A stretch of DNA of 60,766 nucleotides, the filler included, from Catajapyx aquilonaris (taxonomy: Eukaryota): assembly GCA_000934665.2 (NCBI GenBank). It is 3 parts of 3 records of this genome, joined end to end, with 100 filler letters (N's around TTAATTAATTAA, not from the genome) between each part and the next. Parts side by side here need not be neighbours in the genome. Positions count along the whole stretch, not along the records: positions 1 to 20,178 come from JYFJ02006319.1; 2 more parts are not named here. One strand, given 5' to 3'. The notes under the pieces are model-generated. The model worked only from the letters and a program-made list of their open reading frames with translations. It was not told where the DNA came from and made no database searches. Of the stretch, positions 1 through 55,171 are shown one piece after another. The translations under genes were made by a program, and so were the position numbers. Position 1 is the first letter of the stretch. The number at the start of each line of letters is the position of its first letter.

Positions 1-3000
1 GTTTTTGCTGTAAAAGGAATTGGCTGTCAGGGAAATTGGCGGCAAAGGAAAATGTGTGTTGGCGGTAAAAGTTTTTGGCTGTCAGGCAGGCGACCCGGTC
101 TCAACCAGTAGTTGGGTCACCATGATGTGTTTTAAGGGTTAAGGGGAAGGCCTGGAAAAAGTAATAGACAGGAAGGAAAGGAAAAGAAAACCAAGAAGTA
201 AGAGAAGAACGGTAAAGAAAGAAAAAGGCAAAGAATTATTTTTTCGGGAAGTTCATCTCAAATCTACACAAGCATTGCATCTGTTTGAACATTTTATTAG
301 TAGGTAGAATAACTTTTTTGGCGATTTTCAGAGGAGTGTCTGGCACAAGATGATCTCATTGCATGATTTATTGTACGTAAATCATTCTATTGTGAAAAAG
401 TGCTGCGTGTTCATTTATAACCCATACATTAAGTACCAGACGTGCAATTACCTTATGCTCTATTAAGGGAATATTGATATTCAAGCTTCAAGGCTTCCTC
501 GATGAAAAAGGTAAAAAGTAACACCTAGAACCAGCAGCAGGCATATTAAATGAAAGGAATTTTCAGTATTCCCTAGCACTTTTAATTAGTAGCACGTCTC
601 ATTTCACAAGACTTCACTGTGATAGATCTTGGTGTGAAAGTCGGACATGCTTTACAGGAGCTCACTCCTTGAAACAGACATCAGAAAGGTGTGATTGGTC
701 TCCAACAGCTGTCCATCCGGATCCGACAAGACGTCTCCAGGTTTATCAGTTTATATGTATTTAGTGAATATGGTGAGTTTTTGCCCCACTTCAATTTCAG
801 TTCACCGATTCCATAATTATAAACTACATAATCATGAACATTGCACATATGTGTATGCCCTTGACTCTTGGGAACAGCATCGAACACTACTGTACTCACG
901 ATGATTAATACCATTCGCTCAATTATCTGGCCGGGGATCCTTTCCAAGAATTAGAATAAGTCAGACAATTATTCTTATGTCCTTGATGTGATTTAATATA
1001 AGATCCTTGCAAGCAAGAAATTAAATTGCGTGGGTTCAGAGTGTTGCAACGAATGTAAAAGGTGCTTCTCTTGGAACATGCAATATTTTCCGATGTAATT
1101 TACTTGGTGTTAAGACTTCATATGACAGCCGTAAACATCGAGGTGACAAAAATATCTGGATTACAAAATAATGCACTAAATTTTGCTAAACAAGATTCGG
1201 CACAAAACTTGGGAGATATTTTCACATAGAGTTTTCTTCAGGTTTACATAAATGTCATTTATTCCTGCTACATTATTGTCAGTTATGGATGGCCATCATG
1301 CAGAGCTTATGGCACAGCCAGGTCGGTATGTTACATAATGGAGGGATTTCTATTTAAATGAACATGCAAATTCTGGCGGCCATTGGAATTTTGAAAAAAA
1401 AATGCAGATTCCCAATATCTCTGTGTCTATTGTTGCCACTAGTTTTTCTCTAATCGTGTTGATCTACAATTCTAAAAAACCATATCAGGACAATCTTATG
1501 GGTTTGCGATGATATTGCTTTGAAGTGTCTACATGGCAAATAGGCTGCATTTACCTTATTCATAAAAGCTGTGCAACACAGTTGGCGAGTATTGGAAATT
1601 GCTACCACCCAGTAGGTGTGCATAATAATTTTATCTACAGCCAGCAACCAGTCTCTTGTACAGTATAGCTGCTAATTGTCCATATGTTACTGTTGCAAGT
1701 TAGAGCTGTATGAACTGTGCCAGACTTAGTAAGTGAAATACCTGAAAAATGTAGAAGATTGAGGGGAATGGTGAGATGGGGTGAATGAGACTTGAGAGAT
1801 CCGTTATTGCATATTTATTGACACACTGTGGTAGTGGATTAACAATAATTCAATTGGGATCTATTAGTTTGACAGCTATGCATGCTTATCTATAGGGAAA
1901 GGGGGAAGGGTTGTCCATATTCCTAAAAAAAACATCTCCATGATTGTGTAGGCCTACTACCAAGTCAATCACTGCAAAATACAAGTTGCTTGTGTTATTA
2001 ACTTGGTATGGCACATCCATCGTTTCAATTTGACATCAGGTGGTAGGTACATCCCACTATTTTGCAGCACATAATTATATTTTTCTTCCCTCAGTCTTTC
2101 ACAGTCCTTGTCAGTCTCACACTTAACATAAAACCTTCAGTATAGGCGGAATAGATCCTATGAATAACTTTTTTGCGATTTATATAAGTGTCTGGCACCA
2201 GATATCCGTACAGTACAAGCATGATTCATTCCTTATAGTGAGTGGAGTGCTGTCTGTTCATTTATATCCCACATACATTATGTTCGAGGTGTTGAAATGG
2301 CAATACCCTCCTGAATATTAATTCTAACAATATATTGCCTGGCTCTGAAGTTCAAGGGTTGCTCAATAAAAAGTACCACCTGCATGGATGACTTTGCTAC
2401 TCTCATTAGTGTATAGCACGACGTGTCAGTGCACAAAGACTAAAAGAATGTGGGTATTTTTAAATACTCATGGAGTATTGAACGTGTCCCAGCATGTGGT
2501 TGGTCAGGACACGCCCCATCATGTGCACAATGTCACTCAGGTCATCGGAGGATACCACGTTTGGGGTGACAAAATGACTGTCCTCGTCGGTGTGATTTTC
2601 TGTCTCCTGTGCAGCTCTTGGAAAGTATAGTCTATAATATATGGAAAAAGTTAACAAATGAGACAGCATAAACGGAAACGCCTCCAATATTTTCCTATAC
2701 TACGTATTTATTAACACTCGTTCCATCGCCTATTTTTATTTATATTTTCTTGATGCCTGGACCGTGGAAAGTGTTTCCATTTATTTATTTACTTCGCACG
2801 GCCTGTTTCCATGGTAATCGGCACCAAAATCCCGTTGCCATGGGCAAACAGAAAAACAAAGAAACTTTGCCTTACGTACGTAGATATTGAAGAATAAGAA
2901 AAATATGTTTATTAATTTATAGCAGCAAACCCGTGCGTAATGTCGGGTACATATAATATATTATGCTGAACTTGGTGTCAGGCAACGTACGCAGAAGTTA

Positions 3001-4136
3001 TTGAAAGCGGAGGGATATCAAATACAGTAGGCACCCTTTTAACGCCCGATCCATTTCAAGCCGTTTCACATTAACGCCGGTTTGAAAATGATATTTTAAA
3101 ATTGAAAAATACGGAAAAATAGTGAAAATCTGGTGATAGCAACACAATCTGAACATAAACACATCACTTCAACACTTCAAGTCCAAACACACGTCCATCA
3201 TAAAATAATGCTATTTTTTGGTCTTTCGTGGTTCCTCGTAGCGGGGTCTATCGATAAAATAATGCAGTGCGGTATTGTTGGTCTGGGCACTCTCCGAAGT
3301 CTACTGCAGTTCTTGCCAAAATAAGGGAAAAAAGGCCTCAGAACTATCTGACCCTTAACCTGGAACCTCCCACCATTGACCTCAAGTGTCCCAGTGGTTC
3401 AAAAGCGGTGACTAAGCAGCAATTGATGGTAATATTAATATACTGCACTTCAGTGAGTGCTTCCAATCAATGTGTTACTAGCACAGCTAATATTATTTCT
3501 GTCTAGTTTCCCCCACAGATTTGTCAGAACTGTTAGTGTCGGGTAGTTAAATTTGAAAATTACCTTATTTTTTGTCAGGGTCTTCAATAAAATTGTATGG
3601 ATAAAATTATTGCTTTTATTCCAGATTACAACGCCATTACAACGTGAAATGCATCACCTTTTCCATGAAAAATATATGCCCGTTGGTGAGTTAATTGGGC
3701 AATATAATTACAGAAGAGGACATGCAAAATAATTCAAAAGTTCACACTCTATATTTCGGTTATGAAACTTGGTGTGAAACAGTGTGAAATTTTTTATGGA
3801 TTTGTGGCCGAATACAGAGAGTATTTAAAATCATCTTTTAAGATTGGCTCTCTCTTTTAGATTGAACCGCGTAGTACGGACAGTAAAACTAGGCTACAGA
3901 GTCCTTAAGTAGGCTACTAAATCATGCAGTAGGGCCTACTGCATAAAAAATTAATGGGGACAGGTTCTTGAAAATGCTTCGTGGAAATGAGTAAATTGTA
4001 AGTTGCATTTTATTTAAACGTTTCATAACTACATTTTCCATAATACACCACAAACCTCTACGGGGGATAAGCAAAAGGCTAACAAAAGACTATAACCATA
4101 ATATTTGTGCATTATGTAACATTACTGACATGAATG

Positions 4137-5743
4137 TTATTGCATGCATTGTTCATTTGCGATTTTTTTGGCATACTCAGTATTTCTAATGTATATTTCA
4201 TCAATAACTCGTTCGCATAATTTCTGCAATTTCTCGGAAGGAAGAGTGCGGAAATCAGCAAAGAGAGAAGAACGCAGCTCCTCTGCATATTTCTTGTAGA
4301 CACGACGAAGATTCAACTCATTGTACAGTGACTTCACTCGACTCACATCATCTGGATCGTTACTTCCGTAGCATTCCTATTTTAAGAAAATAGAGCAGGA
4401 TTATAATGTTTGTTCTCTCTCTTGTTAGTCAGAATTTACCAAGGTTTGTACTTAATTATTGAATTGCGGAACTGACCTCGAGGACCTTTCGCTGCTCCTC
4501 ATTGGCAAGCTTCAAGGCAGTGACCACAAGCCAGGTGCATTTCCCTTCCTCAATGTCAGTTCCAGCCTTCCCTGTCACCTCCTCCTCTCCATAGCAATCA
4601 AGGAAGTCATTCTCAGACTGGAAAAATATTCCAGCCTTCGTAAGCACTTCTACCACTTGGCGATGGAGTTTCTCCTCGCTAATTCCAACCACGTGCATAG
4701 CTAAGGAGATTGGCAGAACGAAGCTGTAGTAGGTGGTCTTGTATTTACACATCAATGCAAATCTCTCCTGGGTGAACAGGTGGAGCCCTGGTTTGGACTT
4801 TGAAGTAGTAGTCAGGCTATCAATTGCTTGGCCAAAATTTGTGTTGCAATGCACCTGTAACAAACGACCCGAAAATATTTACATACAGTAGTATGAAATG
4901 TTCCAGTTTGAAAAACGACTTGCCATCTTAAATACGGCCAAACACTTGGTATAATACGGCTGCTTCTCGTGGTACTTCTTCAATAGGCTATAGACGGCAG
5001 CCTTCAGCAAAAAGCTGTCGTTAATTGCCTCCGAGCCAACGTGCTTGTACCAGCAAAGTTTCCCTCTGCGAGTTTCACTCCCATCCATGATGTCGTCTGC
5101 CACTAATATGGCAGCCTGCAGCTTCAGTACATGCAATCAGACGAGTTACAATTATTCAGTGACAGAAAATTATTTGACAGAATGGAATTTAAATATAATA
5201 ATAGCTCATCAGCTCAGACACCGGCATCTTTGGCATGTATAATGAGATTAATGACATTATCTCGCATAGTGTATGTTGAGTTGTTGACACTGCCCAGGTA
5301 GCACAAAAAGTTGGGTCAATATTGGACGAATGTTGGCCCAATAGGGCCAATATTGGCCCAACTTTTTGTGCTACCTGGGTGCGTTCAGAACTCATTATAT
5401 GGGCCTCACTGAATGACTTCAACCGTTTTCAGTATTTTGAATCAGATATGTAATGCAAATACGATATGGGGAATATTGTAAGAAAAAGGCTTACCAGTTC
5501 GATGCACCATCCCATGCTATAAATCAGCTTTGATTTGGTTTCATTGAAAGAGCCTTCCATCAGGTTCGTGCAGGCCATGACGAATGTGAGTGCTCTGATC
5601 ATCTTTCCTCCCACGACGTTGTAGTGAAGCACCTCTGCGTACCGTTTGGTCAAATCTGTGAGTCCAGGATGGTCAACATCTTGAGTCAGATCGTTCACCA
5701 TTTGAGAAAATAGCGAGAAAAGCTTTTCACGTTCTTCCTTCAT
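4137..5743 (-). CDS. FPPS-type trans-isoprenyl diphosphate synthase-like protein (~354 aa); exons 5743-5495, 5121-4924, 4854-4477, 4376-4137
   Basis: Spliced product has [28 protein letters not shown] (FARM), [25 protein letters not shown] (SARM), [14 protein letters not shown] and IYIR. All junctions are phase 0 and total 1065 nt. Intron 2 donor is ATG|GCAAGT. Confidence 0.93.
5293..5379. mobile_element. Palindromic MITE (CCCAG...CTGGG termini, 2-bp TG TSD; CACTA/EnSpm-like) in an intron of the IDS-like gene
   Basis: cccaggtagcacaaaaagttggg ... cccaactttttgtgctacctggg flanked by TG on both sides. Confidence 0.75.
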
Positions 5744-6081
5744 AGGATTCTTCACTACGCTGTTGCTCCTGAAATGGAAAAGTGCTGCTGTTTGTTAAAT
5801 ATTCTGGGAAAAAATAAGGACACTCAAATTGTGTTGTAATCCTTAAAATAATGTGATCGTGATGCGTAGTGATCGCTATATAGTGATGTTAGTGAACTCA
5901 CGCAGTCAATCTGGCCATTTCCTTTTCAATAACAATTTCTGCCATTCCCATTGACTTGAATGAGAACTGGAGCACGCTGAAGTCGACTGCAAATATAGGC
6001 TACACTGATGTAGCCTTATAAACAGGCTACCATTATTTCATTGTATCACAAAATTTTGAATGAAAAGTCACTGATTCTTAC

Positions 6082-6145: not shown

Positions 6146-6976
6146 CCACCCCCACCTTTCCGTCGCTTCTTATTATACTCTCCGAGTACAGGGACACATG
6201 TTTGCTTCACATTGTTTATGAAATTTTGCAACCAAAAGTAATTCCCTGATATACGTGACACATTTATGCCTTCACGCGTCGTTAATCTGACAAAAGTATG
6301 AATTCAACATGGTTGCTCAAAGCGAATTATGGCCTCTGATTAGCATCATCAAGTGTTGCGTCGCACTCTGACAAAATGGCGAACTCATGGGACACATTAA
6401 TGACGTCAGAGTTAGAGCCGGAAATCAAACCGTCTAAGTCAGGATCGGAAATATCATGCAGAGGACTTTATAATACTCACATGTCAGTGCATCATGAAAT
6501 GTACCAAGGCCATTGACGACATAAATTAATTCAGGCACTAAGCTATAGCACTTCATTAAGTCATCGCCAGGAATATAAAGGGGAGTGTGGCCATACAATC
6601 CAACAGAATTCTTCCTCAATTTCTTTCAAAAGCTGTGTTTTATGGCATAATAAATCATGATGCGTAGCTTGCAATCTGCAAGCAGAGTTAAATTATGATT
6701 ATTTTGACCTTTGCTATATATACTTATACGTAATGTGTTCACGTGTAGTTTAAATGAACTCCAATTACCTGGGCCCCCAGCTCCCAAACCGTTTACCCGA
6801 TTACAAAGGAACCTTTTGAGATGAATAGACTGTCGACATTAAACCGTCAGCTTGACATGATAACGGGAGTGCCATTGTTTAATAACACTGCGACAATCCA
6901 ATACAAATGGAACCCCCGATAAAGATACCCAAGCAGTCTCTAGGCCAGACGAGCTGAGGAAGGACCTGTCGTCAAG

Positions 6977-9060
6977 ATGCTGGTAATCCACGTATCTATA
7001 TACATACTTGCGCTGCTTTTCTGTGCATTCGGGTCACCTATAGTCACCCATCCGACTGGTGACCCTTTGGAGATGGTCGCCTCCTTGATTGCCACAATGC
7101 ATCGACAGAGGAACGACTGCCTACTAGTGGTTGGGCATGATTATCCGATTGTTCCGGTTGCCATTAACGACCTGGTCAGAAACATCACCACTGGAGGAGG
7201 CATCGTGGTTCCTGTCCAATGGTCCGAAACAACGGTTCTTCCTCCGCCGAATCCCAACCAAGACGGAGTCTTTGAATACTGGTTCTCCTGGCTGGAAAGA
7301 CCCACCGCCAGATGGTTAACGAACTGCGCTTTGTTCGCCTTCATCTATCACCAGGCAAGTGTATAGGCCTATCATATACGCGAATGAGCTAACTTACTTT
7401 CGAATCACGTGGTATGATATGTACAATATTTGTTACGCTTTTTCAACAGGGTCACTTCCAGTCGGTCGTGAAATATACGGCCAGCGTGGTCAGAATGAAC
7501 CCAAGATCAGATAGGTTCCTGTACTACAGCCCGGAGAACGCGGACATATCCAAGGACATGCTCAACCTGGACTACGAGTTCCTGTTCCAGACGGGACTTG
7601 TCTACGATGAGTCTGACACCTTAACCATCATCACCAACTGTCACTTCTGCAACAAAGGTGGCAGACCCATGATCGTTGAAAGAGGGACCTACAGAAAGCA
7701 AATAGGGCTGAATCCGTCTAATTTGGAGTACTTCCCGGACTACTCCAACGACCTGAATGGCCGCTATATCAATATAACGTTCTCGGTCGGATCGAGCAAG
7801 GAGGATTTAGCCTATTTCCTGGCGAACGACATGCCCGTGTTTCCTTACGTCAGAGGTTTTTACCTTGGGTGTGTCGTCCGAAACTGCGATTTTCACATCG
7901 AAGCTCCTGTGGAAGAAGCGGGCCTTGATCCTGTCCTACCAGACGGCAATTGGACGGGCCTTGTTGGCCCTATGCAACGCAAGGAGAGTGAATTAGGGGC
8001 TGCACTCTGCACAGGTGGGGTACTTGAGGTGATTGATGTCACAACCTGCTTCTTCTCCACAACAATCACTCTCTCCACCCGAACTCCTCGGCCTCTGTTC
8101 ACCTGGAGTGCAATAGCAAAACCCTTCACCCTGGACATGTGGGCCGCAATATTCTGCACAGCCATCATCGTCTGCATCTGCTTCTACTACATCCTGAAGG
8201 CGGAGTATGCCATGGGAAGAAATCCTTTTCCTGAGGATGCCACACCACCGACCCACCTCTCCTTGTACTCCCTCCGATTCTCCTTTTCTGCCCTGATTGA
8301 AGAAAACCCAAACCTGACCCCGATCGTCGACTCACTCAAGCTGCTTCTCTGCTTCTACTGGCTCTTTTGCGACCTGCTTGTCGTGGCTTACGATGCCATG
8401 TACTTCGGATTCATGGTGTCACCAGCACTTGAGCCTCTGCCTCAAAGCCTGAGGGAGATGGTGGACTGGCCCAACTGGAAGTGGGACACCATGGATTACG
8501 TCACGGATTCGACTAACATGCTGACGGAATTCTCGGAGGAAGAGTACATCAGGAAGATGCGAGCTGGGATGCAGGGAGGACAGGACATGACCAAGTGCCT
8601 GGTGAAGGCCATCGAAGAGGACTTCAGCTGCATCGCCTTCGATCAGATCCTGGATGCCATGTCCTTGCAATTCATGGACTTGGATGGTAACTTTCCTGTC
8701 CAGACCATTCCCGACTCGACTCTGTGGGTCACGGCCGGCTTCGCCGTGCCTAAGTATTCTATTCTCTTTCATTCTTTTAAGCGATATGAGCTTGGACACG
8801 TGCAATCCAACATGTATGCAAAGTTTACGAGTGATTTTGGCTATCTGATGGGTCTGGCTGCCTTGAAGGGGGCCAGGGAGAAGAATTTGTCGTATGCACT
8901 TTCCATGGCTCTCAGAATCAGTCAGTTGAAGGCTCCTTTTGCCATTCACGCAATCATCATGGGCATTGCTTTCTTAGCTTTCATTGGCGAAAACGTCAAA
9001 TTCCGCGTGGACAAAAGAAAAAAAATTGCAAGCATCCCTGGCAATACGTTACAGATTTGA
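6977..9060 (+). CDS. Divergent ionotropic receptor (IR; iGluR-related chemoreceptor), ~662 aa; exons 6977-7354, 7450-9060
   Basis: Hydrophobic signal peptide; S1 motif PDGNWTGLVGPMQRKESELG; pre-M1 KPFTLDMW; M3 LLVVAYDAMYFGFMVSP; pre-M4 LRISQLKAPF. Phase-0 intron CAG|GCAAGT...CAACAG|G. Confidence 0.9.
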
Positions 9061-12815: not shown

Positions 12816-12867
12816 GCGTGGGTGATGCCGTCGTTGGCTCTGGGGGAAGGTCAGCAGTCCTGTTGTG

Positions 12868-15145
12868 ATGGAGTCTCTTCCGATGGCGTCTGCACCAGCA
12901 GATGAAGAGAGCACCATGAGAGGGCGAACTCCAATCCAGTGCTTCCAGTCTGACCAAGAGACGGACTCAGAGGATGTAAATGAGAGCAAGGAGAGTAGTT
13001 GTGATAATCCACATCCTTCAGTAAGAGTGAAGTGGACCAAGGCAGAAGATGAATTGCTGATGTCCCTTGTGGCCACAGCTTCTGCCGATGGAAAAGCTGT
13101 GAGTTGGACTGAAGTGGCTTCTCACATGCCAAACCGAAGCAAGAGACAGGTGCATGGTAGATGGAGTTATTCTCTCAAGGATACCATCAGGAAGGGTCGA
13201 TTCTCTGCTGATGAAGATAAGAAGCTTCTGAATGCAATTGGTGAGGTGGGACAGGATTTCCCAAGGATCTCCAGAGAAGTGATACCATGGCGCACTTCAG
13301 TACAACTGAGGGATAGGTACAACACGGCTTATCTACGACCTGGGAACAAGGTTGGCTCATGGTCTCGGTAAGTGGTTTTTCATTAGGTGTATGTAGTTAT
13401 ATAGACCCAAGCATGGATACAATATAATTATATGAGAGGTGACGCATAGACTATCTAACCTCCTGATATGGTGTCCAAATTGATATACATTGCTGAGGAC
13501 AGACAGGCAGACACGACAGTACTGAATAATAATAATAAGCTTGCTCACAAGATATTCTCACAATCTGGATATCGTATGATATCTAGGCAGATTTTATACT
13601 TGTTATGCTGTTTGTAAGATGAGAATTGTTCAACATTTACGAAATTTACAGTGAGGAAGATGTGAAGCTGTATAAAACAGTACAAGAGTGTGGAGATAGG
13701 AACTGGAGCCAGGTTGTAAAGCAACTGCCTGGTCGAACTAGAGCAACTTGCAGGTTCCGATACAAGAAAATAATAAAGGAACTTGAGGCTCATCCTGGAA
13801 AAACTGTGAGTATAGTCTACTATATATTCGATGCAAACTGAATTTCTGAAATTTGAAACATTCCAAGTTAAACTTTTTTCAAAAATGTTAGCTCATTATT
13901 GCCAACCCAGAATAATTTAAACTTGGACTTCAGATGTCAGTTTTATCCCAAACTTCAAGACATTGTTTAAAAAATGTTCTGCCCAAGAAAGAAACACAGT
14001 CCTTTTTGTTTTAGTTGCAATTTCCACACCAAAATTTTGTATGCCAGGTAATATTTAAAAATTAAGTCACATTTTTCTTAATTACATTTTGCAATCTTTG
14101 AGCCAGAAATTGTGCTGGACACAATATTATTCTGTTGATTTATAGCACATGCAAGTGAAACAGGCTTGTCCCTATTTGTAAAGTAGATAAACATGAAACT
14201 TCCCCATCTTTCTGATATTCAAGTTATGATTACTGATTGATTGACCACAATAATTGACTTTTATATTTGGAAATTTTATCTGTGACCAGGTTGAGGATGT
14301 ACCGATAAAACGGTACCGCAAAACCAAAAGAATAAACCAGGCCACATCAGGAGATACTCATGATACAGACCATGTGGAAAACAATGCTAAGGATAACAAG
14401 AGTGATGAGCATATTAGTAATGCTTCAGTGACCAGAGTCCAGAAGAAAAATGCATTTTCAAAGGAGATTCTAGTGAAAATGGTGAGTACTACAGGGAGTG
14501 GGCAATGTTTGGACCTTTTTTCCCTTTTCTACTTCTGACACAATATTGTGCTTAACCATATTATTGATATTAATATGAGCCATTGGGATCCATCAGGAAT
14601 CCAATGCAGCTGAGGCAATGAAGCCTCAACGTGGAAGGAAGAAGATATGTCAAAAGGAGGACCCTCAACAGTTGAAGGACTGGTCGAGTGAACAATTCAG
14701 TCAGGGTCTTCAGGAGTCGCGGACAACCATCTCACCAAACAAGGAGATGACGAGGTAGTTATAAAATGAAAAATATTTTCCATGTTTTGACATTGCCTGT
14801 ATTAATGGAGTAATTAATTATTAACCAGGAATTTTTAAATCACAAGTAATGGGCGAGACTGTCATTGTATGGGGAAAATTAATAGTGTAACTTTTGCTTG
14901 AAAATTATTAATACTCAAATCCTGAATATTTCATATTTAGCAATATCCTTTACATTATTGATTGTAATTTATGTTTCAGTGACATCCCCGAGGTAGTAGA
15001 ACAGCCAAAGGGAATAAGAGTCAGCACCAGGAACGGAGGCCATGTTTCATCATCACCAGTGAAGGGAGCAGCATCAGCTAAAAGGAGGAGGATAATACCG
15101 CGGCTAGCAAAGTCATCTCTTGAACATGAAACTATGGGTGATTAA
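12868..15145 (+). CDS. Three-repeat Myb/SANT DNA-binding protein, SNAPC4-like (~389 aa); exons 12868-13367, 13652-13805, 14290-14481, 14597-14754, 14980-15145
   Basis: KWTKAEDELL...WTEVA...RW; KGRFSADED...QLRDRY; WSREEDVKL...WSQV...CRFRY. GT-AG junctions in consistent phase total 1170 nt. Basic KRRR near the C-terminus. Confidence 0.85.
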
Positions 15146-16530: not shown

Positions 16531-18666
16531 ATGGATACTGAAACTCCAGCAACTCCCAGCAGTCCTTCACCGGCAAAGGAAACTACAAAATCAAGGGATT
16601 CTCCAAAGCAACGGTCGAAGCCAGTCGCTCTCGGCGAAGTTGAAAAGAGGAAAGAAGCGACTGAACCCTCAGCAGAAACATACCGGCATGTCAAATAGAT
16701 ATGATATGTAGTAACAGTTGCGTAGCATTTGAGGATGAATCTTGCAGTAATTATATGTCTATTGTGTTACAGGAATGACAGTGATGCACATGAGTTGGAA
16801 AGTGATGATTCAGCAATGTTGCATTCACCTCTGGTAGAAGTAGATGATGAGCCAGGCAATGATGAAGTACAAGTTGTGTATGAAGCGAAACGAGTGTCAG
16901 ACGTGAGCAATGCGGATGGATTGCCTTGGGTGTGCAGGAAATGTAAACAGGGTTTCACCACAAGTTCAGACCTCAAGAGTCACGTGTCCATAACCCACAA
17001 TGTGATTGTGTTTCCATGTGAGGAATGCAAGAAGCAGTTTCAGAGCAACCAGACGTTACGGACTCACAAGAAGTTCTGCGGGAAGGGTCAGGGAATTGCG
17101 GCGCCAAAGGCTAAACGAAGCAAGCAGTTAGTTGATTCAAATCATGCAGATGCTGCAAAGAAAGTTCAGGTTGCGAGTACCAATGGGACTCATCAAATTG
17201 GCCAGCGTGCTAAGATAGCTGGAGAAACACACCGAGATGTACCTTCAGATAAGATCAAATTCAGCGTAGAGGCGAAGAATTCGGTCAACATCAAAGCTGA
17301 CCAGAAGAAAATTGTACCTTCCTGTCCGAAGCCAGCACCAATTTTCCAGTGTGAAATGTGTGGAAAACAACTCCAGTTCAGTTCAAGCTTAAAGAACCAT
17401 GTACAACGTGCTTGCCCAATGCTGGACTCTGTGGCCAAAATGAATTCTAAGCACAAATGCGAAACATGCGGTGAAGGCTTCAGAACCAAGAAGAAACTGG
17501 CTGATCATTCCTTATTGGTGCACTACAAGTTGTTCAAGTGCCAGATATGTGAGAAAAGGTATTTTTATAAGATCTTATTCATGCGGCATCTTCAGACTCA
17601 CCTGGATCAATAGACACAATGCGGAAGAGATAGTGGCGTGTGAAACATGCGGTAAGGCATTCCAGAGTGATAAGTTGCTGCAGAAGCATCGTGCAGTGCA
17701 CAACTACAAGCCGTACTCATGCGAGACATGTGGGAAGAAATACGAAATCGCCAAGGCATTTGAGGCACATTGCGCATCACACAAGGAGCAGTACTTGTGT
17801 GACACCTGCGGGAAGATATGCCGCAATAAGGCTGCACTGCAGATGCAACACCGCATTTGCCACAAGAATGAACGGCCTCATGTGTGATATATGCGGCAAG
17901 TCATTCGTTGTAAGACGTAATCTCGTGATCCATCGCAAGAGGCATGTAGGAGATAAGCGTCACTTGTGTTTAGTGTGTGACAAGGCGTTTTACACAAGGA
18001 ATGTGCTGAAGACCCACCAGATGCTGCACACTGGGGAGAGACCATGGAAGTGCGAGACGTGTGGGAAGGGGTTTAGAGTCCGGCAATCTCTGACCATCCA
18101 TGTGAAAACACACATGCAGAAGTCACACCAATGTGGCATTTGCGGGGACGGTTTGCCACAAAGGAAATGCTGGACTCGCATCAGAGAGTTCACGATAAGA
18201 TCAAGAAGACTCCAGAGCCTTTTACATGCAAGTGTGGGAGAGGTTTCCATAAAGAGAGTAGCCTGAAGCGCCATCAGTCTCATCACCTGAAAGGCGGCAG
18301 ACCTGTAAAATCCACCACATCGATTAAACAGCGTCGCACCAAGAGGACATATGATTTCGTCAGGTGCGGTGAGACACTTACCACTCAGTAGCCTACTGTC
18401 TTAGGATGCATGAACGGACTCATACAGGTGAAAAACCTTTTGCTTTCAGCGCTTGCGGAAAAGCCTTCAACAACCCGCAGTCGTTGAAATTCCATGTAAT
18501 GATACATACTGGAGAGAAGCCATTCAAATGCTGCTTGTGGTCGCAGGGATTCCGCAACCGCCCATCCCGGGCTCTTCATCGCATCTTGTGCAAAGAGAAA
18601 CGTGATGAAGGCCTTACCAGTGATATGTCCACATATGATGGTCCAAAGAAGGAAAGCAGTTCATGA
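16531..18666 (+). pseudogene. Multi-C2H2 zinc-finger gene with frameshifts and stops in its 3' half
   Basis: More than 12 CxxC..HxxxH units and HTGEKP linkers spread over ORFs 16729-17613, 17471-17887, 17640-18266, 18131-18391, 18406-18666. Frame changes near 17610, 17880, 18145; stop at ~18390; late fingers have lost Cys. Confidence 0.8.
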
Positions 18667-21919: not shown

Positions 21920-22800
21920 TCAATTGAAATTATTTCCCACAACTCTTGAATATAATAAATCAAATACCACACCAGACAGAGCGTTGTAATTGGTCCTGTA
22001 TGAGCGTTTTGACCAACACCCATCGCAAACAACTGTTACAAGAGGGACTCCATCTACGTCTACTTCTCCTCTTTCCGTAGCAATAGTTGCTTCCATTTTT
22101 GCGGCCTCCTCCATCTACAGTGCCGTCTTCTTCCACCCATCGCATACAATATTGTGGTGCTTGGTGTAGGTCTTATTGGCCAGCGGTGGTACATTCAAAG
22201 CAGCGGAAAATTCCTCTAACTGCGACTGCCCGCCCCCAATACTTATAATGCCTGCCACTGCTGCAGTCGTCACGTCCATTGAAGTTACATCATTTCTGCA
22301 GGTGGAGAGTCGCTGTTGTACGTTGCACATATTGCAAGTTGCTGTGAGAACACTCGCGTACCCTTTCCTCACTTCACTGGTCAAATCCATATCCTTCAAG
22401 GAACACTCGAAAGGACCTGGATGGTGGTCCATACTCTTCAACTGTTCAAAGAAGAAGTCTATGTCCACAATACGCCTTCCTTCTACCTTGAAGGGTTCCT
22501 TCCTGACTGCTTTCTGTGGTGTTTCACCAACAGCGGTTTCCCCAGGAACAGAACTCTCTGCCATACATGCTTCATAAACTTCACTGGCGATGCTTCGAGA
22601 GATGACTTGAAGACTGTCATTGTCATCAAGTGAGGCACATGAATTCGGAATGGTATCCGATAAATCTGCAGCAATTTCACCAGGAAACGGAATTTCTTCC
22701 AAGTGACTGTTTTCCGAGTTAGATCTTGTCTCGTCAGAATCCCGGATACTGAGAGAGGTGGATGCTATTTCCCGGGACGACTGCTGTGCCACCGAGCTAG
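21920..22800 (-). mobile_element. Kolobok-type (Mutator-like domain) transposase fragment with in-frame stop
   Basis: GRRIVDI.FF.QL, CNMC, V..DGCWSKRSY...YNALSG; TAG at 22115-22117. Confidence 0.7.
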
Positions 22801-24449
22801 AATGTCAGTGACGACACATGAGTTTTATGAATAACCTATTTCCACGACTATGTAGATGTCCGGGAAAATATTCAGAATTGTAAATATTGTACAACAAAAA
22901 GCTCGTACCTTTCCTTTTGCTGCACCCGCCAACTGGCTAGGTTCTCACCCCTTTTCTTCCTCCGAGGTGCAGAAAGTTTCAGACGCGCCTTGGTACCGTT
23001 CCGCCACGTACGACCCATGGTAGCCGACTGCAGTGGTAAATGGCTGGCCCTCTCTGTCTCCAGACCTCACATTGTCCGGATTTTTTTTGTTTTGTTTTTT
23101 TATTGGCCGGATTACCTCCGTTCAATGATCTCTCTTCCAGTACTTGTTTGGGCTGGTGGTAAAACCCGCAGGCAAGGACGCTCAGACGAGAAAATACGCA
23201 CCACGGTGGTTCCATATTGGCTCCAAATAATTAGAGAAACGCACAGAGAAGATTTGGTTAAATGGAATGTACCGTTACAATCAGGAAACAAACCCTTCCC
23301 TCAAAAGGGGAAACCTTGCCGATCATAGCAATAACAACCAAACCAATACACTGCGTTGGATGTAGGCGAGTACGCCAAGACACAACCTTCTCCGCCAGAC
23401 ACTCGTGTCACTCTCTTTCTTTACACACACAAGCAGTATCGAAGTAAACACGGCTACAAAAAAAGAAAGATAACCCAAAAAATATAATCCACAATGTCCG
23501 TTGCATGTTCAAACGGGGCAATCAACTGGGAACATGTTACAGTGCCACAACATTATGCGGTTGTGGAATCCACAGACCTTTCCATTGACGCCAAGCAAAC
23601 ACAAGGAGCTGAATAGGTGACAACGGAAAGGGCCCTCGTTTCTCCCCCAACGGTGATATCGGTTAGCTGTTGTTATTATTATTGACTGTCCTGAATACAA
23701 TTACTTTGAGCCACACTAAATTCGCACATCATCCTGTATAAAACCTGGTCATTATAATATTGCCTGCTGTAAGCGGCCGAGTCTGAAGCTAATACAACAT
23801 CTCATAAATATACAATTCACGCTTGTTATGCTGGGAACAGTGTGTGTTATAATTATCTTCGCTTTCCCAATGTTCTGGGCTGAACTGAAGAAGGGCATCA
23901 AATATCTTCGTGCCGCGGTTGTGCTGCAGAAGTACTAACGTGTAAGTTATATAACGACTAGTTGAATTTGGTCCCGTCATTGTTCACACTCAGCAAAGGC
24001 GAGTAAGGCCGACTGGAACTGATTATAACCAGGAAAATAATATTGTTCTTTTTTGCTGCCACTCGTCGTTCTAGTACATGAAGTGTAGGAAAGAAGGACT
24101 GCAACAATACGTACTCGATTAAGCCTGGGAAGAGGGCTTAAAGCCTCGAATCTTTCTCTTCTTCCTCGGGATAGAATGCTTTTCAGCTGCCTGTTTCGCC
24201 CGTACTATGTGCGCTCCTTCGCGAATGTCGTCGATGCTCAGGCGTAGGCCATAGCGTGGACTGGCTAATTCCGGCAACAGGCATTCCATGTAGAAACTGC
24301 GAATAAGAATTTTTTAAAAAATGTAAGCTGCTCACAAGTTCTATGAAACCAGCCAACCATTTCATGAGGCATAAGGCATATTCACTTACGTTCTCAGCTT
24401 CTCCACCTGTCCTTTCCACCAGCTGTCATCTCGGGATATTCTTTCCAGG

Positions 24450-29749: not shown

Positions 29750-31380
29750 CATCAATCTTCGCTTGAGAGGAAGAAGAGTCCAGGTTGGGATCACGACAAT
29801 TGGTGGATACCTCATCAATGGAACTCTTGATCTACATGGATCGGTAGTCCTGCCTGTTCCTTCAGTGCAGTTTGGCTCTGCAGAAAGTGGAAGCAAAAAT
29901 CCTGGAGGAGGATCTTTGCTGTAGCCAGGCGAAACATTAATGTTTTGCTTGCTTCTCCCCCACAGATATGGACACTGTCAAAATCAGTTTTTAGGGCCAC
30001 TGCAGATATATGCTTGCACAATTTTCCATTCATGCCAATTGGACAGGTGCACATGAAGGCTTGACCTCATAGGTTACACCTGGCTCCTTGCAGCTGGGAA
30101 CAACATACCCCACTCACCGAAGTTTCTGTGATGCTGTCCATATTCACGTCACTTTCGATGTGTGTGAACTTTCTTGTTAAGTTCCGGGACATCCCTGAGT
30201 TTGCATATATGACATTAGTCTCACTTGAATGTATCTGTCATATCTTGTGACAATATAGTCTGTGAGCTGGGTGATGTTATATGGTTGCACGCGGTCCAGG
30301 ATGACGTGAAAGGCAGCTTCCACATAGTTCGTTGTATTGTTGCCCCTTGTAGTCAATCCTGCCCTGAAGCAAGTTGCCCAGCTCACCCGACTCAACCAAA
30401 CACCTTCAATGTACTGCCGGAAATTTGGGTATGTTTTGCACAGATCACTGTCTACCAGGGTTCTATACATAACTTGACAATCACTCTCTGTGCGAGCATC
30501 GATAACAGCTTTAAACATGTAATAGAGTCCCTGCCTGTCACTAGCCCCGATGTGATGTTTCGTTGTGTTCGTTATCCAGCTCCACACTGCCTTCTTCATG
30601 TGAAACTGGCATAGCAAAAGACTACTTGTGGGAAATAAACGTGCCAGGGGCATCCGCTCCTTCATGTCATTATCTGTCATAATGATTGCAGGGCTTCCCT
30701 GTCCAAAAAAAAGGCCTTCTCAGGGAAGCATCTCTCTGTAAGTATATACAATGCTTCTTCAAAGACTGACTCCTTCTCACAGTCAGTGATGGCCCCAAGG
30801 GGTAGGCCACCTGCTGGAGTTGATGTTATGAGCAAGTACAGCCTGTGCCGGTGTCTATCCATTCCCCCTGATGCATCAGTGTACATTATCTCGTAACTAT
30901 GTATGGCTTGTTCATGTATCCTGGCCATCAGAGATGTACATAAGCAAACGATTGTGTGCCCATCTTTAGTAGTTTCCACTGCATACCCCTTCATTAGTGC
31001 CATGGGTTTCCAGAAATGTGTTCAGCTCACTAATCACGCCATCTCCTGATCTTGTTCCGTATTGAGAGTGAAACACTTCGTAAAATAGTGATAGACAGTG
31101 CTCTTTGTAGGTAGATACCTCTTGTCACCCTGAATCGTATACCAATCAGGATGGTCCAGGTACAAGTCTGTTTCCAGGCAGTGGAGGGCTGAAGATGGGG
31201 AATGACCCATGCGGAACAGGTCTTCTAACTTTCATCTCTAAGCCTCAGGGCTGCAGCGCTGTCCTGGCGATGGTTGTGGGTGTTGTTCAGTGTGACTACA
31301 CATGGCCAATCCGGGAGGAGTGGATCAGAGGGCTGCTTCTGCTTGGTCCGCGGCTTGACATCAGTTCTGGCAATAAATTA
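29750..31380 (-). mobile_element. Degenerate MULE (Mutator) transposase with SWIM zinc finger
   Basis: YTDASGGMDR, PAGGLPLG, IMTDND, LLCQFH, TRGNNTTNYVEA, CTCPIGMNGKLCKH; several frameshifts. Confidence 0.85.
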
Positions 31381-44748: not shown

Positions 44749-45436
44749 GGGCCTTAATGGATAGACTAGATTAGAGATCCTTGAAGAAGGCTCTCTGCCT
44801 GATCGTTTAGTACAAGAATGGGAATGATCGGCCTGTGCAGGGTGACACCCTTCTGCCCTTCACAGGTAATGACAAACGAAAGTTCTTCAGGGCAAACATA
44901 TGGAATCAGGTGGGGGTGTGAGGTGGGTTTGGGGGGGGGGGGGGNGTGAAGGGGTCAAAAATTCTGGGGGAAAAACACCTGGCTGATGTGCAGTCTTTTC
45001 CTGGGCCAACTCGATCCGCATTCCTCTTTTTACACATCCAATCAACATATCTGCGTCGACTATGCTATAACCGAAGCAGGCAATAAGTGACAAACTTTGC
45101 CTTATTGAAACTTATAAGCCCTATTTTAGGGCATATCGAGTTTCGAGTGTATGGAACTCAAATTTTACAAACAAACAAACTTCCTATAATATACTGTATA
45201 CGTACGTACCCCTACCTTTACCAGCACCCCCAACATACCCTGGCAACGCCAGGTAACCTGCTAGTTGTAAATACTTGAGGGTCACCCTGTAGCTGCAGTA
45301 AGTGCATTAAATGGGTGATAACTCGATAAGTACGGTACTGTCTTATCGATTACATACATTAGCTCATGCATTAGCTGCACAAAGAAATCGACAAACAATG
45401 GGGGATTCATATTTATCGATACTCAGTATTGGCAAG

Positions 45437-46296
45437 TGACACAAAAGTATCAATAGAGTAAATAATTAAGGTCTCTATGTTTTGTCTCACCCATTAGCGT
45501 CCCAGGCAGTGGTGCCCGTAACGGAAGTCCGACCTCACTCATGCTGGTACGGAGTAAATCTTCGTAATCTTCCTCCATTTTACCACAGGCCATGATGGCT
45601 TCTGTCACAAACAACCTCACTATGTTTTGTCGCTTGACAACGGCAATATTGTTGCCTGCAAGAAGCCAATGCTCGACAGATACTATTGATGTTTGTTGTA
45701 ACTCGTAAGTGTACTGTATGTGTCAATCCTGGTATACCTATTGTTAAAGCTCAAAGAGTGCAATCCCCTGCTGTACTTAAAAGAAGGTATTTGCATCGTT
45801 CTGAGACTGATTAACTCTTGTCTACCAGTGACTGATTAAAAGGTATACACAGCCTCTTTCAGAGCAATCTTTGTGATGTTTCATGTGGCAGTTGGTCAAC
45901 TGTAGTTTGACATATAATTAATTTTGTTGCATTGTGTGAGCATAAACCATGAACTGATAACCTTTTTGCTTGCTTTTGTCAGACAACAGTGCATGCGACC
46001 CCCAGACAGCCGCAATGGAAGATGCATTCCTAAATTGTGGTTCTGTGACTTTGACAACGACTGTGGAGATGACTCTGATGAGCCAGCCCATATCTGTCGG
46101 CTGCATCGCAACTGCACCTTGGGATGGCAGCGTTGGTCCTGGGTGGCCCAACTACCATTACATCCCCAAGTGGCTCTGTGATGGCAAGGATGACTGCAGG
46201 GATGGCAGTGATAAGTTGGCAGAGAACTGCCCCAAATGCCACGACACACGCGACTTCACTTGCAAGAACAACCGTTGCATACCCAGGCAATGTTTG
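45437..46296 (+). repeat. Copy 1 of ~860-bp direct duplication (includes a megalin exon piece)
   Basis: Near-identical to 55172-56048, with about a dozen substitutions or indels. Confidence 0.92.
45982..46296 (+). pseudogene. LRP2: Megalin/LRP2 LDLa-repeat exon fragment, frameshifted and cut by LTR insertion
   Basis: [60 protein letters not shown]. Confidence 0.75.
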
Positions 46297-46908
46297 TGTG
46301 ACCGTACCAGTTGGAGGCATCGAACTATACAGACTCTAATAGTGCTCTGCTTGTCATGATGTTCCTAGAACCGTATGTTGCATCAGCCCTCTCTCCACTC
46401 CCATCAACCAGTGGGGTACCAGTGGTATATAAACCAGCCCCACTTTCCCCTCGAGGTCCTCGACACTCGACTCATCAGCTCCACATTGGAAGAAGAAGAA
46501 GAAGAGAGAAGCTCGGATCCTCCGAAGTCGCGTGTACCTCCCGCCCCTTGCCTACATACCCGCCCAAGGGGCTCCACCCCCCCCCCCCCCCCCCCCCCCC
46601 CNACCCGGCAGAACCAACCCACTCCCCCCCCCTCTTCCCCTCAGGGGATTGCGGGCCAGAGCAACCTCCCCCCTACCCGCCGCCGGGTACATGCACTAAC
46701 CAGAGCATACCCACATCCTACTCACCCAAGCAATAACACCTAGCCTTCAACCAGTCCTATAGCATAACACAACCGAAACCCCCACAACCTCCCGCCACTG
46801 GTAATGCGAAAACCAGGGTTACCATCCACTTACCAGGGGCGCCTGCGGGGGGGACCTGAGACGCGGGAACCACACCGCTGGTAACTACCAGCTGAACCGG
46901 CGACCACA

Positions 46909-48702
46909 ATGGAGGAGGGGAGGAAGGGCGTGACCATAACCATGGGAGGAGAAGAAGACAGCACCGGGGGGAGACTCAGCACAGACGGCGATTCAACCGC
47001 GGAAGTAGACGACGCGCCTCAAGACAGCGACCACATGGAAGACGCCCCACGTACCTCCAAGAGGGGCAGACATTCTTCAGAAAGCGTCGCGCAACTCGGG
47101 ACCGCAGAAGAACATGGAAAAGACTCCTATCAGCGGGTGGGGAAGAAGAAATGCAACGCTCCACCCACCCCCCCGAGGATCCCGGAAGGGGACACGGGGG
47201 AGGGAGTGAACGGGGATGACCCGCACGCCACACCAGCCTCTACGCATGAGGGCCAACAAACGCAGCAGAACGGGCTGAGCAGGATGGGGGCGACCTCAGC
47301 GAAAGGGGGAGATGACAGGAACGGGACCGCCGTGCTCCTCACCCCAAGAGAACAGAGCAGGGGATACGGAAGCTGCAACCCTAACGCCCTGCTACAACAC
47401 CTGTTGACATTCGGGGTGCGGCCACTCGACATGAATGCCCTGAAGTCTGGGGCTCTCAGGATCCGGGTGGCAAACATAGAGGAGGCAACAAAACTACTCT
47501 CAGCCCCGGAAGTGCACGGGATACCCTGCGCGGCCAGAATCATGGAGGAGTCCAGGACCTACAAGGGAGTCATAACGGTCCCTGAGGTCTACACAGAGGA
47601 AGCGATCCTAGACGCTCTAAGGGACATCGGGGCGGTCAGGGCACACCGCATCGTACATAGGGCGGGAGGAAGGGAGTACCCCCAAAGAAGGGTCATAGTG
47701 ACATCTCGACAGCCGTTGCCGACCCAGGTCAACTTCGGCCTACGCATCCTCAGGATCACACCATTTGTCGCCCCCCCGCTGCAGTGCTGGAGGTGTCAGG
47801 GATACAACCACGTGGCAAAGCACTGCGCCAACCGCCCCCGATGCCGCATATGCGCCGGGGACCACAAAACAGCAACATGTCAAGCGGAGGAGCAGAAATG
47901 CGCCAACTGTGGTGGGCAACACGTCTCCACCAGCCGCACATGCCCCAGGTTCCTGGTGGCACAAGAAACCAGGCGACTGATTGCGGAAGGCGGAACCAGT
48001 AGGAAACAGGCAACAAAAACAGCCAAGGCCACCTACAGGGACATGCTCATAGGTCGACCCCCAATGCAAGCAGCTGCTACGGTGTCAAGCCCATCGGAAG
48101 CCGAACAAGGGACGACTGGCCAACCAGACAACCCCACACCTGACGTCACCACCTCCAACCCTGGCGACCCCACCCTCGCAGACACCTCAGCAGACCCAGG
48201 CACCCTCGACCCAAACCCGACCTTGCCCGAGACTTACCCCTCGAATGGGGCGAAAAAGGGAGCGAAGACGAGGACGAGGACGGGGGCAGACAACGTGCAG
48301 GAACACAGACCAGGGAGGTCGCTGAGTCGGCGGCGGGGGAACAAAGGGCCCAGACAGCCCCCACCACGGGCGAGAGAGACCAGCCAGGCGCGAGGCAAGG
48401 ACACGAGCTGTAATCGAGGAGGCGACAGGAACGCCGCAACACGGAACAAGGCCGGAAGAGCAGCACTGGTAACGCCGGAACAGGAGCGCCCTACAGCGAC
48501 GGAAGTCACCCTCACCAGGGAATTAACATTGCGCATAGTCACCGCAGTGGTGATGGTGATGGTGGAGGAAGGGGCGACACTACCACAACTCACCAGGATA
48601 ACTGACCTCCTGCGCTCCATACTGCCAAACGAACAATTACTGCCGGATGCAGACACCATCACGGCAGCGATGACCAGTACGATAGAAGAGATGCGGAACT
48701 AG
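46909..48702 (+). CDS. LINE ORF1, gag-like nucleic-acid-binding protein
   Basis: 597 aa; three zinc knuckles CWRCQGYNHVAKHC, CRICAGDH....C, CANCGGQH......C. Confidence 0.9.
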   Translation: MEEGRKGVTITMGGEEDSTGGRLSTDGDSTAEVDDAPQDSDHMEDAPRTSKRGRHSSESVAQLGTAEEHGKDSYQRVGKKKCNAPPTPPRIPEGDTGEGVNGDDPHATPASTHEGQQTQQNGLSRMGATSAKGGDDRNGTAVLLTPREQSRGYGSCNPNALLQHLLTFGVRPLDMNALKSGALRIRVANIEEATKLLSAPEVHGIPCAARIMEESRTYKGVITVPEVYTEEAILDALRDIGAVRAHRIVHRAGGREYPQRRVIVTSRQPLPTQVNFGLRILRITPFVAPPLQCWRCQGYNHVAKHCANRPRCRICAGDHKTATCQAEEQKCANCGGQHVSTSRTCPRFLVAQETRRLIAEGGTSRKQATKTAKATYRDMLIGRPPMQAAATVSSPSEAEQGTTGQPDNPTPDVTTSNPGDPTLADTSADPGTLDPNPTLPETYPSNGAKKGAKTRTRTGADNVQEHRPGRSLSRRRGNKGPRQPPPRARETSQARGKDTSCNRGGDRNAATRNKAGRAALVTPEQERPTATEVTLTRELTLRIVTAVVMVMVEEGATLPQLTRITDLLRSILPNEQLLPDADTITAAMTSTIEEMRN

Positions 48703-51700: not shown

Positions 51701-52485
51701 GACATCCAGGAAAAATCAGAGTACCCGACGACTGCTCCATCCTCACCGCAGAGCTAGTAGCCATACTGGGAGCGCTACAATGGGGAGCAAACTTTGCTTC
51801 CCAACCCATTGTGGTGCTCACTGACTCACGGGCGGCGGTGCAATCCATTCAGGCGGTGCCGGAGAGAACATCCAACCCGGCGCTGTGCTGGAAAATCAGA
51901 CTGGTATGCGAGCGACTGGGGAGAGCTGGAACAGGTGCCACGATACAGTGGGTCCCTGGACACTGCGGGCTAACAGGGAACGAAACGGCGGATCAAGAAG
52001 CCAAAGCAGCGCTGGGGGAGGCCCAGATCGATGAGGACCTCCCTATCCACCACCTGGACGTAAAGAAGACGGCAAAACCGGCCATGCTGCGGGAATGGCA
52101 GGAGGAATGGGACAGGTCAGCCCTGGGACGCCACCGCCACGGGCTACGCAGGGAGATAGGCCCCACCAAGCCCATGCGTCTGAACCGACAGTTTGAGGCG
52201 GCCATCACGCGACTTCGACTAGGGCACCTCCGACCAGCCTGGCAGGGAGAAGCGACGAACGACTGGCACTGCAGGTGTGGCGAGCCAGATGACATCCGCC
52301 ATATGCTGCTGCACTGCCGGTTGTACACCTCCGCACGTGGAACCATGGTGTCCACGGCGACGGCGCTGAGGTCCGCGGGCCTGCAGGAGCTGCTCTTCCC
52401 GTTGGGCACCCACACGCAGCAGAGGAGACTGCTGCAAGCACTTGCCACCTACCTGCTGGAGACGGGTCTGGTGGCGCGGCTGTGA
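48696..52485 (+). pseudogene. LINE ORF2 (AP endonuclease, reverse transcriptase, RNase H, C-terminal zinc motif) with three lesions
   Basis: VCWNARG, GDFNAH, GSDHFP; YRPICLLS, FFDIKGAFD, GVPQGSALSP, FADD; WTDGSK, AELVAI, LTDS, WVPGHCGLTGNETAD. TAG at 49737; frameshifts near 49815 and 51712. Confidence 0.9.
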
Positions 52486-54505: not shown

Positions 54506-55171
54506 GCCGCCTGTAAGTGACGTGCGTGGGAAAGGGTTATTCCCTTACGCGCGTGCGGAGGCGTGCCCACATGTGTGTCTGTGTAAACTGAGTGTTGTAT
54601 ACACACGGTGCCTGGTCTTGGACATCAAGGCGGCATCAAGGCGTCTGAATGAACATGTCACATGAAGCAGATGACGCCAACTCTATCCATGTTACTCTAC
54701 CATGGCAGTCGTGATTGTTAACATCATGTTTCTTTTCCCCCTTTTGGCATTTTTTGACTTGTGCTCATTGCTACTGTGGGTGCATGGAAGGTTTATGGGA
54801 CTATTTGACGGCCTGAAGACCCTGGGCCGCCATCTCCGCGGGGTGGTGTGTGACCGTACCAGTTGGAGGCATCGAACTATACAGACTCTAATAGTGCTCT
54901 GCTTGTCATGATGTTCCTGGAACCATATGTTGCATCAGCCCTCTCTCCACTCCCATCAACCAGTGGGGTTCCAGTGGTATATAAACCAGCCCCACTTTCT
55001 CCTCGAGGTCTTTCCGGCGTATCCTTCGGGACGCGTCGGGGGTCCACCCTAATCCTGCACACACACCTTTTTGTTTACCATATCCTCTTTGTTTGTATCA
55101 TAGCGTTACGTAATAAAACGATCGTGTACAAGTCACCCACGTGTTTTTCCTGCCGTCCCGTACGGTATTAT

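Follow-up and report, generated by a model that had tools for sequence, protein, structure and literature searches.

We describe here a gene resembling farnesyl diphosphate synthase (FPPS) in a stretch of 60,766 nt of Catajapyx aquilonaris DNA (the window). By minus-strand translation and homology, the gene occupies positions 4137–5743 of the minus strand and has four exons, which together comprise 1065 nt, stop codon included, and encode 354 amino acids (aa) (Table 1). Judging by its sequence, the encoded protein is a member of the trans-isoprenyl diphosphate synthase (IDS) family. Thus, when compared with Pfam PF00348 (polyprenyl_synt; cut-off 27 bits), exon 3 scores 101.6 bits (E = 5e-29) and exon 2 scores 66 bits (E = 4e-18), with exon 1 alone falling below the cut-off (20.9 bits, E = 2e-4). 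An earlier, sequence-only reading had claimed an intact gene for 354 aa; this is borne out by the frame, which is open over the four exons, and by the PF00348 match. A tblastn search with the protein found no FPPS-like copy in the window besides this gene.

The four-exon model, as predicted from sequence and homology, is a usable open frame. Introns 1, 2 and 3 measure 373, 69 and 100 nt, respectively; the first and third are of the GT-AG type, and the second has a GC donor, which was accepted because it is the sole donor that preserves both the frame and the homology. The acceptor of intron 1 is weak, and an alternative AG lying 6 nt downstream would remove Leu84-Gln85. The upstream AG was preferred, on the basis of homology alone, because it restores the E-L-L-Q-A spacing of the family. 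The protein is collinear with its relatives, and the alignment is gap-free at every exon junction. The acceptor-like TTTCAG located 26 nt 5' of the ATG suggests, as a sequence inference only, an unseen non-coding first exon. Intron 1 also holds an inverted repeat that resembles a miniature inverted-repeat transposable element (MITE), with 33-nt arms that are 97% complementary. The contig word depth reaches 2772–3899 over 5306–5379, compared with ~20–35 in the bins flanking the element; the element is therefore very high-copy in the genome.

Table 1. Position of the FPPS-like gene parts and of other features along the window (FARM and SARM, first and second aspartate-rich motifs)
Feature	Position	Strand	Remarks
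Putative leader	5744–5769	−	26 nt, between acceptor-like TTTCAG (end ~5769) and ATG
Exon 1	5495–5743	−	aa 1–83; first in-frame ATG 5743–5741; GGKMIRA, aa 45–51; donor CTG/GTAAGC
MITE-like inverted repeat	5293–5379		within intron 1
Exon 2	4924–5121	−	aa 84–149; FARM intact, −5 Ala87, −4 Ile88; SETRRGK; GC donor ATG/GCAAGT
Exon 3	4477–4854	−	aa 150–275; altered SARM with Glu230 and Asn231; GKAGTD
Asn231 codon, AAT	4609–4611	−	first SARM Asp position; preceding codon 4612–4614, GAG = Glu230, at the Gln position
Exon 4	4137–4376	−	aa 276–354 and TAA; IYIRNT tail and 13-residue extension
AATAAA, poly(A)-signal-like hexamer	4009–4014	−	122 nt past the stop codon; sequence match only
Ionotropic-receptor-like gene	6944–9060	+	555-aa open exon; weak match to the ligand-gated ion channel family PF00060 (30.3 bits; cut-off 30.8)
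Myb-domain exon	12826–13371	+	
Run of C2H2 zinc-finger open frames	16726–18266	+	
Mutator-like and MULE transposase fragments	22115–22804; 30177–31021	−	
LINE	46885–52485	+	GC-rich; endonuclease, reverse transcriptase, RNase H
Direct copies of ~1 kb flanking the LINE	45436–46458; 54847–55960		with LDL-receptor class A exon

The sequence-only reading had listed four departures from canonical FPPS, and translation and alignment show every one of them to be described correctly. For the comparison, the protein was aligned with 95 relatives, namely the 300–480-aa matches among the best 150 of 2759, together with six cluster members. First, the residues at −5 and −4 before the FARM are Ala87 and Ile88; the FARM itself (DDIMD, aa 92–96) is intact and fits the published FARM expression. 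Second, the SARM region reads F-Q-S-E-N-D-F-L-D, so that aa 231–235 are NDFLD and not DDxxD, and 83 of the 95 relatives have Asp at the first position. Third, the region-I motif GGKxNR reads GGKMIR. Fourth, the C-terminus continues from IYIRNT for 13 extra residues. The canonical chain ends two residues past a conserved Arg; Thr341 takes this last position, which is Lys in 61/95 relatives, and the 13 positions that follow are empty in 87–92 of the 95. The reported retention of the RR (aa 101–102), GQ (aa 156–157) and KT (aa 188–189) motifs was likewise confirmed.

That the Asn231 codon might be a sequencing error had been raised from the start. Logan contigs of three DNA runs (X1, X2 and X4) cover 4500–4867 with 0 differences and no variant listed. 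These runs come from one sample in one study and are possibly the source reads of the assembly. An assembly slip at the codon is therefore ruled out, a library-wide artefact is not, and the codon stands as backed by three DNA runs of a single sample.

How unusual are the departures? Glu at position 230 occurs in none of the 95 relatives, Asn at position 231 in eight of them, and residues past the canonical C-terminal end in at most eight. These rare states support the view that the sites are diagnostic. The same cannot be said of the Ile in GGKMIR, shared at the Asn position by 8 of 91 relatives (Asn in 49, Thr in 13), or of the non-aromatic −5 residue, which is found in 46/91 rows with the Catajapyx protein counted (aromatic in 45/91). 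The −4 residue is non-aromatic in 25/91 rows (aromatic in 66/91), and both are non-aromatic together in 20/94. Outside these sites the protein is conservative: of the 65 columns in which conservation among the relatives reaches 80% or more, 59 are kept, and the six departures are G51A, L146V, I184M, Q230E, D231N and E306A. The sequence pattern thus argues for a focused change at the SARM on an otherwise conserved active site.

Whether such a protein condenses two substrates or ionizes a single one bears on the residues that contact isopentenyl diphosphate (IPP). We mapped the IPP-contact positions of the IPP-binding motifs IBM-1 to IBM-5 and of the SARM, as given by Rebholz et al. 2023 (PMC10108439), onto the alignment. 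In that report, in which the variable C-terminal motif was omitted, the contacts are 98% conserved in insect IDSs, as opposed to ~10% in characterized insect terpene synthases, where at least three motifs are altered on average (PMC10108439). The Catajapyx protein keeps 14 of the 15 contacts, including Lys47, Arg50, Gln85, Arg101, Arg102 and Lys245, the sole loss being D257 (Asn231); all 15 are kept in 64/95 relatives. By comparison, the bruchid terpene-synthase-like proteins P0148 and P0201 keep 5/15 and bear the hallmarks of beetle terpene synthases, an ablated IBM-1 and R127Y. Since the residues for a second diphosphate substrate are intact, a condensing enzyme is favored over a typical terpene synthase. 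Retention of the contacts nevertheless leaves terpene synthase activity possible, because lepidopteran terpene synthases keep the basic residues of IBM-1 and one leafhopper terpene synthase keeps nearly all IPP contacts, according to the same report (PMC10108439). Whole-motif IBM regular expressions were tried as a classifier between IDSs and terpene synthases and were set aside as too strict, with 3/8 matched by the Catajapyx protein and 5/8 by the Hyalella and Tetranychus FPPSs.

The protein is divergent. Over the full length, no database protein exceeds 45% identity to it, and the best match to exon 3 among 1.84 billion representatives is a Tetranychus FPPS at 55%. When longer homologues of exon 3 were sought, 0 of 271 candidates scored, and a search for homologues of near length returned one 168-aa match at 53% identity. 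That 59/65 conserved columns and 14/15 IPP contacts have been kept at ≤45% identity points to an active site long under purifying selection. A quick maximum-likelihood tree was built from 94 rows, leaving out the scrambled rows P0010 and P0049; in it, the end branch of the Catajapyx protein is 0.64, compared with a median of 0.45. The protein pairs with P0007 (Shimodaira-Hasegawa-like approximate likelihood ratio test, SH-aLRT, 95), an unnamed protein derived from a transcript, whose SARM likewise carries Asn. A homologue search with P0007 gave 107 matches, all at ≤41% identity; P0007 is therefore an orphan itself, and no series of orthologues can be built from it. Near rows in the tree include FPPS or FPPS-like proteins from amphipod, termite, cockroach, stick-insect and beetle sources, and the Catajapyx protein lies outside the bruchid terpene-synthase-like clade, whose members P0148 and P0201 serve as stand-ins for characterized insect terpene synthases. 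Clustering with canonical FPPS on a short branch had been named as one outcome that would speak against a specialized enzyme; the branch is moderately long. The proposal that this is not the housekeeping FPPS is plausible and unproven, and what speaks for it is the low identity, the moderately long branch and the replaced site-B Asp.

The same organism appears to house more than this gene. Contigs of runs X1, X2, X4 and X5 are 86–92% alike to exons 4, 1 and 2 (over 4074–4381 and 4918–5702); among them is a 567-nt contig of run X5 (2022), which is 86–90% alike over 4074–4344. On this sequence basis, at least one or two closely related copies are present elsewhere in the genome. Measured against the frame of the present gene, one related-copy contig contains a stop and an insertion of 4 nt, and another has Ala in place of Ile49. 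The differences between the gene and its related copies, counted as synonymous:non-synonymous, are 8:11 in exon 4 and 1:5 in exon 1, from incomplete lists that are not decisive.

Comparison with canonical arthropod FPPSs defines what has changed. The Tetranychus urticae FPPS (P0001/P0151 cluster) and the Hyalella azteca FPPS (P0008) share 45% identity over 312 aa and 41% identity over 342 aa, respectively, with the Catajapyx protein. All are alike in fold family, length, FARM, RRG, GQ, KT, GKxGTD and 14/15 IPP contacts. In contrast, canonical arthropod FPPSs have an aromatic −4 residue, DDxLD and a chain end two residues past the Arg, where the Catajapyx protein has Ala-Ile, E-N-D-F-L-D and the 13-residue extension. 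Its closest solved relatives are Phaedon cochleariae IDS1 (PcIDS1), avian FPPS and human FPPS, and among solved structures exon 3 matches PcIDS1 (PDB 8A6U) best (E = 4e-35 to 2e-34). For avian FPPS, replacement of F112/F113 reportedly lengthens the product. Wild-type PcIDS1 is a synthase of geranyl diphosphate (GPP) and farnesyl diphosphate (FPP) switched by metal ions; unlike the Catajapyx protein, it has DDFLD and a normal C-terminus, and Asn occurs in an engineered variant only.

Work on PcIDS1 nonetheless indicates what the altered residues do. As described for that enzyme (PMC10396970), the Mg2+ of site B is ligated by the first SARM Asp (D319); the terminal carboxylate, lying between an Arg and the Lys of IBM-1, helps to hold the diphosphate of IPP. 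By alignment, PDB 8a7b is the PcIDS1 variant with Asn at the first SARM position, and zoledronate is reported to have stabilized every variant but D319A (PMC10396970); we take this to mean that the metal can still be bound by Asn. A second line of evidence comes from mealybugs. According to the report on these insects (PMC10960109), the D308N mutant of transIDS5 carries out C10 coupling at the wild-type level, with the C15 step hampered and the weak irregular activity abolished. The same report describes seven natural FPPS-like genes in which a canonical FARM is combined with an Asn-Asp (ND) start of the SARM; of three such proteins tested there, one showed regular coupling and two were inactive in vitro, and irregular activity was seen in none of the three (PMC10960109). 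By comparison of motif descriptions, these Planococcus citri proteins (transIDS8-13 and 18) resemble the Catajapyx protein in both motifs. They represent a family expansion beside true FPPS genes, and their SARMs (NDYND, NDYYD, NDGVAL) are also altered at later positions (PMC10960109).

As to the pocket, the double mutation F95M/F96S turned a stink-bug FPPS into a synthase of geranylgeranyl diphosphate (GGPP) (Lancaster et al. 2018, PMC6140472), and a long-chain product from the Catajapyx enzyme, the other half of the sequence-only reading, would fit the −5/−4 rule. The same source names non-aromatic −4/−5 residues as a feature of the insect terpene synthases of IDS type, describes them as required for the activity of the Murgantia histrionica enzyme (MhTPS) and notes SARM substitutions in the Ips and Phyllotreta terpene synthases (PMC6140472).

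The change from Asp to Asn is not peculiar to the present gene. The Asn-SARM rows of the alignment come from fireflies, bruchids, a swallowtail, a stick insect and Chrysanthemum chrysanthemyl diphosphate synthase (CDS), and include P0007, P0056, P0039, P0116, P0148 and P0201; SARM Asp-to-Asn paralogues are already described from mealybugs, beetles and, as CDS, from plants. The −4 residue is non-aromatic in 8/9 Asn-SARM rows, compared with 17/82 others, and the last canonical position is non-basic in 7/9, compared with 19/85 others. In independent-pairs tests, no correlated change of Asn231 with other sites reached significance, because too few independent pairs (2–3) lie on supported branches.

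The plant row, P0116, deserves closer comparison, bearing in mind that it was picked post hoc, once the shared Asn had been noticed. It represents the Asteraceae CDS (PMC3518182), an FPPS-derived plant paralogue of independent origin with a plastid transit peptide, and falls in a separate clade of the present tree. P0116 and the Catajapyx protein have in common NDxLD, GGKM-V/I-RA, Ile at −4, a small residue at −5 and the basic diphosphate ligands. P0116 departs from the ≥60% consensus at 24 positions, and the Catajapyx protein has the identical state at seven, the most of the 95 other rows, with six in the nearest relative of P0116 itself; it is non-consensus at 14 of the 24. Liu et al. 2012 (PMC3518182) name D243N among four active-site changes of CDS, and 103V as one of three sites on the CDS branch with posterior probability >95%, 102M and 103V being in conserved region I. 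Mapped by motif, 103V may be the Val of GGKMVR in P0116. The Catajapyx protein has the D243N state (Asn231) and a hydrophobic residue for the region-I Asn (GGKMIR, compared with GGKMVR). The other three active-site changes, T201G/S, F239Y and R351G, are absent, the residues being Thr189, Phe227 and Arg339.

In arthropods, duplicates of FPPS have time and again given rise to enzymes that make pheromones, defensive terpenes or hormone variants. Our preferred reading, to which we give slightly less than even credence, is that the gene is a selectively maintained, lineage-specific arthropod FPPS paralogue whose product would still condense two substrates and would no longer be a standard (E,E)-FPP synthase; its prenyl product probably differs from that of canonical FPPS. 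Mechanistically, the intact first DDxxD would serve two of the three metals, and the allylic substrate would still be ionized on a three-metal cluster. The lysines and arginines for both diphosphates are intact, and the second diphosphate substrate would still bind. With Ala-Ile at the floor of the allylic pocket, a deeper pocket might allow growth past C15 (GGPP or longer) or admit a bulkier allylic substrate. The C-terminus no longer ends at the lid position, and the Gln-to-Glu change adjoins the site-B Asn; an Asn ligand at site B, together with a displaced terminal carboxylate, could loosen closure of the IPP site and shift turnover and product spectrum.

Several observations weigh against this reading. 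In the published mealybug tests, two natural ND-type proteins out of three were inactive in vitro (PMC10960109). Since the SARM change makes products shorter or synthesis slower in mutants, and the pocket change makes products longer, the product is unpredictable from sequence. The stop and the 4-nt insertion in a related copy indicate that the local family includes decaying members and is still turning over. Finally, the sequencing runs listed as matching the locus are four DNA runs (one sample, one study), with no RNA run among them.

A different view is that catalysis has been weakened in this copy: it would be a surplus duplicate on its way to being lost, or would have no activity of its own and modulate another IDS subunit as its partner. 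A replaced site-B metal ligand, a displaced lid, one GC donor and one weak acceptor would all suit it, as do the inactive mealybug proteins (PMC10960109) and the differences to the sister copies, incomplete as those lists are. We consider it unlikely, however: the conserved columns and IPP contacts have been kept at ≤45% identity, the 354 codons form an open frame, the splice sites are usable and a poly(A)-signal-like hexamer follows, and the heteromer tests reported for mealybugs found no regulatory effect of such paralogues (PMC10960109). A doubtful place also falls to the idea, the weaker half of the sequence-only reading, that the protein is an IDS-derived terpene synthase, which would ionize one prenyl diphosphate (GPP, FPP or GGPP) to a hydrocarbon or alcohol without condensation. 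The resemblance to the Murgantia histrionica and Phyllotreta striolata terpene synthases is real, comprising descent from FPPS, non-aromatic −4/−5 residues, an altered C-terminus and, in the beetle members, an altered SARM; Ips and Phyllotreta enzymes have SARM substitutions, the bruchid terpene-synthase-like relatives have the very same Asn, and lepidopteran and leafhopper enzymes likewise keep IPP-site residues in the published comparison (PMC10108439). But insect IDS-type terpene synthases, with P0148 and P0201 as stand-ins, have lost the IPP-binding lysine and arginines that the Catajapyx protein retains. Its 14 contacts, all basic diphosphate ligands among them, are set against 5/15 in the bruchid proteins and ~10% in characterized insect enzymes with at least three motifs altered on average (PMC10108439). 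In addition, it stands apart from the bruchid clade and has gained no aromatic replacements in IBM-1, IBM-2 or IBM-3.

Irregular coupling is another chemistry open to a protein with both diphosphate sites retained. Here a second dimethylallyl diphosphate (DMAPP), not IPP, would occupy the retained site, and the C10 products would be branched or cyclopropyl. What recommends it is the resemblance to P0116 in GGKM-[V/I]-R-A, the small −5 residue, Ile at −4, Ser/Thr after KT/KS and N-D-x-L-D, together with the seven identical departures, the naming of D243N and 103V for CDS (PMC3518182) and the prevalence of a non-aromatic −4 residue among Asn-SARM rows. We regard it as quite unlikely. Three of the four CDS active-site changes are missing; the seven shared states include several conservative exchanges (L/I/V, D/E), in a protein that is non-consensus at 14/24 anyway; the independent-pairs tests rest on 2–3 pairs and are not significant; and the comparison was chosen after the shared Asn was seen. 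Moreover, the Asp-to-Asn change abolished the irregular activity of a mealybug FPPS, and the three natural ND-type proteins tested in that report were without it (PMC10960109). A literature search found no dedicated animal enzyme for irregular terpenoid coupling, and the irregular coupling in the mealybug report is trace activity only, in a true FPPS (PMC10960109). By analogy with the plant enzyme, one could go further and suppose that the protein is an animal counterpart of CDS, with convergent changes in region I, pocket and SARM, that joins two DMAPP (or DMAPP and another allylic unit) non-head-to-tail; this we hold to be very unlikely.

The Catajapyx protein is a useful intermediate state, in which the diphosphate-binding residues are intact and changes have affected the site-B metal ligand, the floor of the pocket and the lid, and it bears on which residue changes switch a condensing enzyme to another chemistry. 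At stake in the recurrent combination of Asn in the SARM with a non-aromatic pocket is chain length, coupling geometry or rate. If the protein were a true irregular-coupling enzyme, it would answer an open question on animal irregular terpenoids.

The remaining gene content of the window is animal and arthropod-like. The FPPS-like gene has an ionotropic-receptor-like gene as its head-to-head neighbor, at ~1.2 kb from the ATG of the former. The window also contains Myb-domain and zinc-finger coding sequence, transposase fragments of the Mutator-like element (MULE) kind and a long interspersed nuclear element (LINE) (Table 1). The two ~1-kb direct copies that flank the LINE, each with a low-density lipoprotein (LDL)-receptor class A exon, are 98–100% identical and represent either a recent duplication or an assembly artefact.

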